The notes under the pieces are model-generated. The model had not been told where the DNA came from. It worked only from the letters and a program-made list of their open reading frames with translations, and did no database searches. DNA of 64,000 nucleotides from Eledone cirrhosa (taxonomy: Eukaryota), in assembly GCA_964016885.1 (NCBI GenBank), contig OZ024740.1, forward strand, positions 380,122,001 to 380,186,000. Reading direction: 5' to 3'. Of this stretch, positions 4,196-62,556 are shown in pieces; the stretch's first letter is position 1, and each line of letters begins with the position of its first letter. A program made the position numbers and the translations under genes.

Positions 4196-4713
4196 AATAT
4201 AATATATTTTATTCACCAAATGCCGTCTATTTAAAAGCAACCCAGATCTCTTATATATAGAGTAGCACATCACAACTCAACCTGAGATCAGTTTGGCAAT
4301 CGCCACCGACGAATGCGAGAAAGTTCTCCAGGAAAGTTAACCACCGATGTTAACAAAAACTTTCTAGATCTAAAAAACCAAATTGTAAAATCATAACATT
4401 ATAAAATTACATTGTTTAGAACTACAAATGAAATCATTCTTTTCCTTTTTTCAAATATACCTAACTCTACCAAGGATTTCACACATTTTCCAATATATAT
4501 ATATATATATATATATATATATGAATGAAGTTAATATGTCCAAGGATACTAGGTACCCCTAGAAATACATAGGTTGTCTATGATTCAAGGTTGTTCAATG
4601 GTATTAATTTGATACACCAGAACTTTAATATTAAGATAAGCAGAACAAGTAAAATTCAATCAATTCTTTAAAATACATTAAAAAATATAATATAAATATT
4701 TACCTCTCCTAGT

Positions 4714-4797
4714 GGCCCTTACTGATCAGTTTCGCTTTGTAAAACCTCATAAATCCGATGGATTTCTGATGGAAAACCAAAGCTCATCAGAGAAGCA
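4714..4797 (-). ncRNA. Type I hammerhead ribozyme
   Basis: Minus strand: gcttct CTGATGA gctttg...caaagc GAAA CTGATCAG TA agggc. Confidence 0.85.
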
Positions 4798-5220
4798 TTT
4801 TCCTTTCCTAGGGCTAAACGTCCCAGGAACGACAAAATATATGGCCTCCTGCCAGCAAATAAAGGTCTGAAAGGTCGTAAAAGTGACCCGTATGTAAACT
4901 GGACCGAAGTAAAAGCGGGAAAATCAAAGACTTGCTGTCTACAATTACTACTAAAAAAAAATAAAAATAAAAATAAAAATAGCAGCTAAATAGAACAACA
5001 GATTTGTTCTCAACATAACGGAATATAATGAATTAAGTTAATATGTCCAAGGATACTAGGTACCCCTAGAAATACATAGGTTGTCTATGATTCAAGGTTG
5101 TTCAATGGTATTAATTTGATACACCAGAACTTTAATATTAAGATAAGCAGAACAAGTAAAATTCAATCAATTCTTTAAAATACATTAAAAAATATAATAT
5201 AAATATTTACCTCTCCTAGT

Positions 5221-59500: not shown

Positions 59501-61679
59501 TAATTTAATTCTATAACGACCAAACCAATACAATTTCAGGTAATATTTCCTCGTTTTTTATAATGGAGACCACTATAGAGCAAAGGTCTAATCTCCTGGC
59601 AAGTTGAGATCCGAACCCAGTTTCGATTCTCAGCTGCTGACAATTAACTTTACTTATGATGATATTTCCATTGGAAAAGGCTCGAACCTGATATATATCA
59701 TGCCAAATTCTTCTACAAATATAGAATTTGTGCGTGGGAAGAATAAGTCAATATCCGTTCTTTTATTTTACACACCTATCGTCGCTGTCGTTTAGCCCCA
59801 GCGCAATTCGGATTAATCAAACGTCTCTCAAAAGGTGAACCAGCCATACCACCCTATTTGTTTGTATGTGTAGGTGACTGGTTTCCAAACCTTTCCATTT
59901 TTATTCGCATTGAATGTATAACTATTTTATATTTAGATAAATATTGTATTCTACAATGCATAAATGTTCAATTCTAGTACAATTCAATATTTACCACACA
60001 AACTCAGGCATAATATGATAAAGGAAGTTGTTTTGTTGATAGCTGATTATTCTGACTACGGTTATGCTGAAGTTACATGGGAGAAAAAGAGGCCAGATTC
60101 AACACAGCGAAGAAGGCCTTCCATCTAATCTAATCTAAACTGAGATAACATAACTTGAACAGAGCTGACTTCTCATGGTATGTCAAAACACTTGTTAGGA
60201 GCAGAAATTCAATGTTAAGAAATGTATGTACACGCATTTATTTACGTCTTCGTTCTTTCCTACAGTTTCCTTGTATTGCAGACACAATGTAGAACGAAGA
60301 ATTAAAGTGAAACGTAAAAAGGAGACACTTTCGGTCTGCTCCCTTTCGTGACGTCAGCGTCAGTGCGTGAACGACCGGGTAACGACTGGTTTAGTTCGCA
60401 ATTACAGTTATGAAAGTAGTATTTATTATGATCGACAAGAAAACTTCTATTAGGTGTATTTTTAGTCATTTCTTATCACTGTTACACATTTATATCAATC
60501 GAAAAACAACAAAAAATTAAATAATTATCTACTGGAATCTCCATTCATCTACTAGCAAATAGAAAACATGACGAACCATATGAGATGACTTTTCTTGGCG
60601 CCATCATTGTATAATTAACAGAGGTTTTATTATAACTAATAATTACTTCTAGCGAATTTGTATAGGAAGGAGAGATTCAGACATGCCCTCAACGCATCAA
60701 ATGGAAAACAAAGTCTTCAAGCGTGTCTTCCAGCAACTCGATGGGTTATGGGACGCAAGTAATACTACTAGTGCACTCATGAAAGAACATGAAAACATAG
60801 CCACTAAGATACCCACTGTGCAATTGAAAAATAAAAATCTTTGTGTATTTCGGAAACCCATACCTAACAAATCTAAAGTAAATGCAATCGTCTATGTTTG
60901 AACCAATGTACTACATCCCCTAAGAAAATCACGCTTCATCCAAATATGTAATATAACAGGGCTGTATGCGGACAAGAAAAGACACAATCTCCCAGCTTCA
61001 TCGTAACAAACAGGTTCCGATCTCAATCTCAATCGATTTGGTATTATCCATGTCAACAATTGATGTTTCAATAGTCACATTACGGAATGACGTACGTTAT
61101 CATAAATTGTTTCTTATTCACTTCTCTGTTAGAAACTTTTCTGAAATTTCACAGGATATATTCTGTCGGATAACCATACTCCATGCTCGTCAATTATACT
61201 GTGTGGTGGGACCCAATTTAGTCACCGAAAATGAGCCAGGATGTATTTGGTTTCAGTGTACCAATAACAGGTAGAACGTGCGTGGCCATACGTGATAATT
61301 TTCTATATTCCACGAAAAATGTCGGGTTTCATGCTGGTCTGAAAAAAAGCAATGAAAACTAATATCACTTTTAGCATCAACGACACAATCCTCGAAGGAG
61401 ATCCGATTATGTTGCTTTCTTTCTATTTCTGGCAACTATTCAAGGTAATTTTAATAAGTTCATGTAGTAATACATCATCATATAGTTGAATTCTGGAATA
61501 GACAATAGCTACTCAAGGAAATATCACGAAACACTGTTAGATTGTTAATTGTTAATACAGGATGATAAATCACGTCATAGTATACACGCGCACGCACACA
61601 CACACACATACACACACACACACACATTTGTGTATGTATGTATAATATATATATATATACAGTATATATATATATATAT

Positions 61680-62556
61680 AAATGTAATCTGAGTTTCTCG
61701 AATATTAATAACATTCGATTCGTTTGCAATTATGAAAACAAGCCTCAATTAAAAAATGTCAGTAGAATGAACACTTCATTCTTGCTCTGGTATCACCCTT
61801 CATCAGTACAGCTCACTGTTCAACTGCCAAACTGTCAGAGCTAGTGAAAATATATATTATTTTCAAAAATACACAGTGACTGATCGGCCTGATTTGCATG
61901 TCAGCAGACTGGCTGATCAGTCAGATCTGCATATTAGCAGATCCACTGATCAGCCAGATTTGCAGACTGGCCAGTCAGTTTCCTGTATACGAGCGATAAA
62001 TGGCCGGCTTTGCCAAATTCAAATAAAATAGAAAATTTCACTCAACATGGCTGAATACAATAAATGCAATCTGAGTTTTTCGAATATTAATAATTGTTTC
62101 TACTTTAGGCACAAGGCCAGCAATTACCCAGTACATTACTGGTACTTTATTTTATCGACCCCGTAAGGATGAAAGGCAAAGTTAACCTCATATTAATAAT
62201 AACATTCGATTCGTTTGCAATTATGCAAACAAGCCTCAATTATATAGCCATGTCAGTAGAATGAACAGTCCCTGTGTATTTTTGAAAATAGCATATATTT
62301 TCACTAGCTCTGAAAGTTTGGCAGGTGAACAGTGAGCTGTACTGATGAAGGGTGATACCCAAAAACATTAGTGTCTGCAGTTCTGTTCGCATGCCAACAC
62401 CAGTGCAAGAATGAAGTGTTCATTCTACTGACATGGCTATAAAATTGAGGCTTGTTTGCATAATTGCAAACGAATCGAATGTTATTATTAATTATTAATA
62501 TTCGAAAAACTCAGATTACATTTATTGTATTCAGCCATGTAGAGCGAAATTTTCTT
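61680..62556. mobile_element. Hammerhead element: tandem forward copies plus an inverted permuted copy, with a nested SINE fragment at 62091-62189
   Basis: AAATG(T/C)AATCTGAGTTT at 61680 and 62062; reverse-complement block 62272-62556. Plus strand 62334-62383: gagctgta CTGATGA a gggt gat accc aAAAA CATTAGTG TC tgcagttc (G12 lost). Confidence 0.85.

Follow-up and report, generated by a model that had tools for sequence, protein, structure and literature searches.

Why should every inverted repeat in a stretch of DNA point the same way? The question is raised by a stretch of 64,000 nucleotides from Eledone cirrhosa (assembly GCA_964016885.1, contig OZ024740.1, positions 380,122,001 to 380,186,000 of the forward strand; hereafter the window), which sits on the largest contig of this 3.0-Gb genome and in which an initial annotation had noticed twelve inverted repeats, all arranged 5' to 5' with both 3' ends pointing outward. 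Here we report evidence supporting the identification of these repeats as ends of Penelope-like elements (PLEs) that carry inverted pseudo-long terminal repeats (pLTRs) and lie in (TA)n runs. The families examined each have two fixed end sites, a proximal and a distal one separated by 35-130 nt, and in 88 of 89 callable two-armed insertions one arm ends at the distal site, and thus bears a tail, while the other ends at the proximal site. Together with the sequence variants that the two arms share, this pattern indicates that one RNA is probably reverse-transcribed from both strands of the target, one priming at the distal and the other at the proximal site, and that the ends of the two cDNAs are then joined.

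All twelve inverted repeats were found where they had been annotated, most of them adjoining (TA)n runs, and the common polarity holds for 12 of 12. The list itself was incomplete, since the window contains two further elements of the same polarity, at 2029-4490 and 30244-30381. The elements are given below, with the annotated start in brackets where it differs and with the strand of each hammerhead ribozyme written as a sign after its position; families are named after the annotated start of their window member.

2029-4490, minus strand: 5'-truncated PLE, absent from the initial list, with remnants of the reverse transcriptase (RT) thumb and GIY-YIG domains at 4189-3072 and an inverted copy of its own 3' end at 4270-4459; polarity as in the twelve
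4523-5878: insertion with two arms, from a non-coding family whose tandem unit measures ~500 nt; left arm 4523-5376 (minus strand, ~1.7 units, distal end), right arm 5377-5878 (plus strand, proximal end); hammerheads 4790-, 5297- and 5716+ by descriptor
22311-22462: small head-to-head insertion; left arm terminates at the proximal site, right-arm tail of ~37 nt at 22426-22462; CTGANGA box only
22470-22901: near-perfect palindrome of the final ~200 nt of a putative Neptune-type PLE, apex at 22668, without a hammerhead; tail of ~36 nt on the right arm only (22863-22901)
22915-23570 (22962): head-to-head insertion; long left arm with hammerhead 23200- and tail 22915-22957, right arm 23359-23570 terminating at the proximal site
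25990-26420 (26055): head-to-head insertion; hammerhead 26233-; extension on the left arm only (by inspection)
28944-30128 (28945): old head-to-head insertion with arms 70% alike; degenerate hammerhead 29941+; right-arm tail
30244-30381: 48505-family insertion, absent from the initial list; inverted tail-only arm 30244-30339 joined, without overlap, to a short sense arm that stops at the proximal site; polarity as in the twelve
42371-42860 (42372): head-to-head insertion; hammerheads with a long helix II at 42497- and 42718+
47570-48075: head-to-head insertion; hammerhead 47681-; right arm begins within the hammerhead and has an extension of ~40 nt (by inspection)
48505-48848: palindrome of a very abundant family; hammerheads on both arms (48693-, 48748+); left-arm tail of ~88 nt
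52476-53020: head-to-head insertion; hammerhead 52674-; left-arm extension of ~40 nt (by inspection)
55667-56183: spacer-less palindrome 55667-56052 plus a right-arm tail of ~130 nt; hammerhead boxes on both arms (55852-, 55867+)
61681-62556 (61680): nested head-to-head insertion; hammerheads 61806- and 62342+; left end proximal, right end distal

The initial annotation had described the orientation as ribozyme-sense, and by predicted hammerhead boxes in the pLTR this stands for 10 of the 12 elements. Five of them (4523, 26055, 42372, 47570 and 52476) are oriented by a type I hammerhead descriptor, which was run on the window and on eight 100-kb blocks (864 kb in all) and returned 54 matches, compared with 2, 1 and 0 in local shuffles and 2 in the reversed sequence. 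At four others (22962, 48505, 55667 and 61680) both core boxes can be read directly, and at 28945, where the window copy is degenerate, an alignment of 20 family loci reveals both boxes together with the helices. The description does not extend to the last two elements: a CTGANGA box was sought in the 22470 element and not found, and in the 22311 family the copies compared have no GAAA box after their CTGANGA box, leaving half a predicted hammerhead. The direction of the 22470 element comes from its parent open reading frame (ORF), which encodes RT and GIY-YIG domains, and that of 22311 from the CTGANGA box and the two fixed, (TA)n-abutting ends. An Rfam scan gave no hammerhead match at E<=1, only chance miRNA-type matches on hairpins and simple repeats.

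The same polarity prevails outside the window. The comparison of divergent with convergent arrangements that had been proposed as a check was run on samples, and the outcome was far from 50:50. The exact search patterns have 7,006 matches genome-wide for the 22470 family, 45,108 for the 48505 family (a 24-mer) and 723 for the 4523 family; in the first 100 matches listed on contig C1 for each family, neighbours no more than 5 kb apart were arranged minus-plus rather than plus-minus in 31 vs 0, 17 vs 2 and 5 vs 0 cases, respectively (the last counted by eye). Pooled, these are 53 divergent and 2 convergent pairs (p = 9e-14), and both convergent pairs are separate insertions with (TA)n in between. 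A second sample consisted of seven 100-kb blocks at arbitrary coordinates (0.7 Mb), an eighth, satellite-like block on contig C7 with a GC content of 0.20 being excluded. Counted as alignments and not as loci, its 149 inverted alignments outside short interspersed element (SINE)-like repeats comprised 66 divergent, 7 convergent, 2 mixed and 74 unorientable ones. On inspection, none of the 7 convergent alignments was a joined tail-to-tail pair: three have a (TA)n run in the gap and one a short TA run at the centre, two depend on one doubtful hammerhead match, and one depends on a library entry that runs into a neighbouring element. A SINE-like repeat used as a control in the same blocks had no divergent bias (12 divergent vs 20 convergent); its genome-wide list, with opposite-strand neighbours 2 vs 0 and 9 same-strand neighbours within 5 kb, is too small for a strong control. 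The head-to-head polarity is itself a published property of PLEs, in which it is the most frequently observed arrangement (PMC3846280), and is not new.

The assignment to Penelope-like elements with inverted pLTRs, made in the initial annotation, is borne out by the 22470 arm, which is the constant 3' end of an RT-GIY-YIG parent. A 703-aa frame at locus L172 matches RVT_1 (E 3.5e-7) and GIY-YIG (E 1.3e-6), and at L171, L172 and L286-L288 the ORF always runs into the 22470 arm, which fixes the direction of the arm without a ribozyme, whereas the 5' truncation point at which the inverted copy is attached varies. In translation, the parent GIY-YIG domain has two cysteines between its GIY- and YIG-like motifs and two histidines downstream, the cysteine/histidine feature of the PLE GIY-YIG as defined in PMC8557442. 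A C-x4-C-x2-C motif upstream of the GIY-YIG core at L171 and L172 fits the CX2-5CxxC zinc-finger-like linker between the RT and the endonuclease (EN) of the Neptune clade, a linker that is also present in the Nematis clade (PMC8557442); we call the parent Neptune-type by its domain order and linker only. A pLTR with an adjacent inverted, 5'-truncated copy in head-to-head orientation is present, as in the canonical insertion unit of EN-containing (EN+) PLEs, which consists of these two parts and an optional one-sided tail (PMC3846280; PMC8557442). In the 48505 family, only RT remnants, located between the arms, were found as parent coding sequence, and the 4523 family consists of non-coding tandem units, each with a predicted type I hammerhead, whose tandem matches are spaced 485 nt apart and of which up to five stand on one arm (L283). 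Any target-site duplication is masked, because the flanks are (TA)n runs. Miniature inverted-repeat transposable elements (MITEs) are a poor description of these repeats: the outer ends differ by the tail, the inner junctions vary by kilobases, and the arms are the 3' end of an RT element, not terminal repeats around a constant interior.

The outer ends carry most of the information on how the insertions arise. In the 22470 family, one distal and one proximal end were found in 47 of 47 two-armed insertions (44 counted by hand and 3 more), 26 of which came from a query favouring one apex type; within the unbiased pattern sample alone, 13 of 13 fetched loci and 3 of 3 others follow the one-tail pattern. 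The 48505 family has one end of each kind in 26 of 27 callable insertions, two further pairs being uncallable, and the 4523 family in 15 of 15, including two that resemble a local duplicate pair and three in which a distal arm of 15-23 nt was read from the flank. The tail occurs on either arm (11 vs 11 relative to an asymmetric apex, with 1 uncalled), and in the families inspected both fixed sites fall on TA-like microhomology with the target. In five 48505-family insertions (the window copy at 30244, L211, L216, L227 and L238) the tail-bearing arm consists of tail only, and the two arms have no overlap; in two of the five, the tail-only arm starts exactly at the proximal site. Because no tail is present in the proximal cDNA, such an arm is not a fold-back copy of it. 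Also considered and ruled out was a circular intermediate that opens on one side or the other of the tail: the tail is in sense with its own arm on both sides.

The arms of an insertion moreover resemble each other in a way that points to a single template. In the diverse 48505 family, 21 insertions were compared: the two arms of an insertion differ by 0.8%, as against 7.8% from one insertion to another. The arms have 125 non-majority letters in common, of which 9 are private to the locus, and differ at 19; they are identical even when 2.4-3.4 kb apart. The young 22470 family gives a less clear picture, its 42 pairs having 8 shared variants, or 0.19 per pair vs 0.017 between insertions.

The inner junctions of the 22470 family vary from 0 to >3 kb, with one strong hot spot. 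At 792 loci the insertion centres on one GATC; 302 of these apices are asymmetric, ~490 loci are loop-less palindromes, and 35 of the first 50 loci listed are perfect ones. Arms with other partners also begin at or within a few bases of this GATC. A TATA-like box ~30 nt upstream of the hot spot (L288 7455-7500) may be a pLTR core promoter, and by the TATA-box spacing rule the hot spot could mark a start of transcription. The GATC would then be the 5' end of the RNA, possibly at the pLTR transcription start. The cDNA ends at L288 7485-7491 have no predicted hairpin, and two such ends pair with each other at -4.3 to -6.1 kcal/mol; this mutual pairing of run-off ends, in the lack of a predicted hairpin, favours the joining of two cDNAs. 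The alternative view of the 22470 family as a self-propagating palindrome was rejected: it came from an apex-favouring query, the junctions proved varied, with a hot spot, once an unbiased pattern was searched, and the copies sharing the apex have no private diagnostic variants.

From these observations we tentatively propose programmed twin priming, in which one ribonucleoprotein would copy a single RNA from two fixed start sites, each serving one strand of the target. The GIY-YIG nuclease, which may act as a dimer, would nick both strands of the (TA)n target; one strand would prime at the distal site and copy the tail, and the other would prime at the proximal site. Priming from the 3' side of the RNA requires the 3' ends to face outward. 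If the distal cDNA stops early, a tail-only arm would result, as in twin priming of the L1 retrotransposon; if it displaces the other cDNA and runs on, the arms would overlap and form an inverted repeat. The 3' ends of the cDNAs may anneal through 0-7 nt of microhomology or be end-joined, and when both cDNAs run off the 5' end of the RNA they could anneal by the self-complementary GATC into a loop-less palindrome of ~400 bp. The coupling of the two starts and the joining are what we infer from the products, and displacement of a strand by this RT is assumed. The biochemical precedent is an anole PLE. According to the available text of PMC11167929, its protein, a predicted dimer, cuts both strands of the target and extends them, and its RT starts at two sites, one on either side of the tail. 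If the proposal is right, a single default reaction yields the tail, the inverted pLTR and the mini-palindromes alike, and no separate priming step for the second strand is needed.

The initial annotation had offered two mechanisms, twin priming on a cut (TA)n target and folding back of the cDNA. Twin priming fits better and fold-back less well, because of the pairing of one distal with one proximal end, the non-overlapping tail-only arms and the loop-less GATC apices. In the fold-back or self-priming model, one cDNA, or an antisense RNA (PMC3846280), folds back and copies itself into a hairpin; before integration, this is cut distally on one strand and proximally on the opposite one, or else encounters a short additional cDNA. 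Such a process gives arms that are head-to-head and share one template, and it can also yield one tail, and a hybrid is conceivable in which a long cDNA folds back and then meets a short one. Palindromes at inverted junctions are the published argument for self-priming (PMC3846280), and many junctions here have short microhomology and room for a loop. Against this stand the tail-only arms, which could not be copied from a proximal cDNA, and the commonest apex, which has neither a loop nor a predicted hairpin; the stagger of the cut would need to be 35-130 nt, depending on the family, and in vitro both ends of the tail are RT start sites on sense RNA (PMC11167929, in the text available). We therefore consider fold-back unlikely, if less so than the following two explanations.

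Dual priming, proposed for L1 (PMC2837659), would involve a protein dimer with two RNAs, one per strand, the asymmetry of the dimer setting which start is distal and which proximal. It requires no strand displacement and accounts for arms that differ at family-level variants, as some do in the 22470 family. It is nevertheless improbable, given that the arms have subfamily and private variants in common in the 21 insertions of the diverse 48505 family: two RNAs from a mixed pool would often differ, unless they came from one locus, and nothing obvious would prevent two distal or two proximal starts. Still less credible, and in our judgement very improbable, is the idea that the palindromes were not made at insertion but represent a MITE-like or master palindrome, insertions that adjoin by chance in (TA)n, or fold-back artefacts that arose in sequencing or assembly. 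It is true that one exact apex recurs 302 times and that (TA)n runs attract repeated insertions. In addition, the four sequencing runs searched contain the families in other samples and yielded no read or contig piece spanning an apex; opposite-strand joints in these runs may be mapping between identical arms. Yet the junctions range from 0 to >3 kb within one family, the same apex stands on a variant background common to ORF-bearing copies (L113), 10 of 10 convergent pairs in a survey of 48505- and 4523-family ends are separated by (TA)n, and the SINE-like control lacks the divergent bias. An artefact is unlikely because the arms of old copies are only 70-95% alike, the outer ends are unequal and the arms lie up to 3-6 kb apart.

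Several observations weigh against priming of both strands on one RNA, or limit its reach. The type of apex expected from mixed repair of a two-cDNA heteroduplex was seen at 0 of the first 50 loci listed. In the 22470 family the arms differ by 1.03% within and 1.26% between insertions, and variants found at several loci occur on one arm only (L111, L112, L171, L172, L186, L190 and L196), contrary to what copying from a single template would predict. Two templates, or two pLTR copies within one long RNA, may have been used in some insertions, and others may have undergone conversion afterwards. Later conversion between arms can likewise be an alternative source of their identity. One insertion, L276, carries two proximal ends. 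In the 4523 family, ~32 of 49 insertions have a proximal end and no second arm that can be seen, and a single arm is all that lies within 1.5 kb in 9 of the 22 insertions of the unbiased 22470 sample, so that a second priming event is not visible in every insertion. Finally, the in vitro work on the anole element, as far as its available text goes, reports no difference between strands in the start site, and coupling was outside its scope (PMC11167929).

Other features of the window and the sampled loci touch on the same families. At 47409-47570, a 48505-family tail with a partial arm adjoins the left end of the 47570 element (a nested insertion), and 62446-63484 holds older inverted copies akin to the 61680 family at 74-76% (62446-62547 with 63012-63105; 63064-63188 with 63367-63484). 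An 87-nt piece between two (TA)n runs at 54876-54962 resembles a tail-only insertion; its first part is matched by the extension that another abundant palindromic family bears on one side. Two direct repeats were seen: a retrozyme-like tandem at 53048-54021 (period 524, 99% alike), which has a minus-strand hammerhead in each unit (53179-, 53703-) and no inverted arm, and a repeat of period 306 at 21845-22289 with compact hammerhead-like motifs at 21972- and 22278-. At L116, L214 and L215, (TA)n-derived arrays of >1 kb lie beside PLE ends and were possibly expanded during or after insertion. The satellite-like block (contig C7, 30000001-30100000, L081-L090; GC 0.20) has no (TA)n runs and many internal inverted matches. 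The SINE-like control repeat is very abundant (53,478 exact 35-mer matches), its near neighbours are mostly on the same strand (14 of 16 within 7 kb), and it occurs in the window at 6906-7252, 27012-27165, 36527-36659, 39158-39365, 49244-49449 and 62083-62190. Broken remnants of long interspersed elements, with Pfam matches to endonuclease and RT, lie at 43847-47200, 36810-38397 and 13379-13765.

The elements described here invite comparison with several known systems. With non-LTR retrozymes (bioRxiv 10.64898/2026.07.22.740005; PMC4209133; both as far as their available text goes) the 4523 family shares a non-coding tandem unit of ~500 nt and, in each unit, a type I hammerhead with a palindromic helix III; unlike them, it also forms head-to-head arms with the one-tail pattern. 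The available text of the retrozyme preprint links retrozymes to pLTRs (bioRxiv 10.64898/2026.07.22.740005), and a term search of it found no mention of tails or palindromes and the word "inverted" only in the title of a reference; paired minimal hammerheads 100-700 bp apart on opposite strands are described in the accessible part of PMC4209133. The likeness to L1 twin or dual priming (PMC2837659) lies in two primings from opposite strands, an inverted piece, 3' ends facing outward and an internal junction with little microhomology, and the five tail-only arms of the 48505 family share its geometry. In L1, however, the choice of the second site is opportunistic and there is no overlap between the pieces, whereas here both sites are fixed for each family and the arms usually overlap.

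Closest are the PLEs themselves. As in canonical EN+ PLEs, there are head-to-head arms, a tail at one end, partial tandems and (TA)n targeting, as well as an RT with a C-terminal GIY-YIG domain and, in 10 of the 12 elements, predicted type I hammerhead boxes near the ends. The differences are that the tail, described there as optional, is found on exactly one arm in the 88 of 89 callable two-armed insertions, that it measures ~35 to 130 nt depending on the family rather than the published 30-40, and that one family (22470) has no recognisable hammerhead. Tandem and inverted PLE structures have been attributed to "still undefined" features of the cycle, and an in vitro system has been called for (PMC8557442); one is now supplied by the anole Poseidon element PAc (PMC11167929, here and below in its available text). 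PAc resembles the elements of this study in the cutting and extension of both strands, the AT-rich targets and the two internal RT starts that bracket a tail. It starts at a non-homologous site, whereas here, in the families inspected, both sites coincide with TA-like microhomology to the target, and its main text, in the part available, does not address inverted insertions or the coupling of start sites. In the literature searched, subscription papers and supplements aside, neither a strict one-tail rule nor twin priming is described for PLEs. Our results also suggest that a large share of the inverted repeats in this 3.0-Gb genome was made by retroelements and could be mislabelled as MITEs. 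Relative to the known PLE structure, what is new here is the rule of one distal and one proximal end, with the evidence for a single template; the rule argues against the published idea of antisense self-priming and makes the question of how PLEs integrate directly testable.

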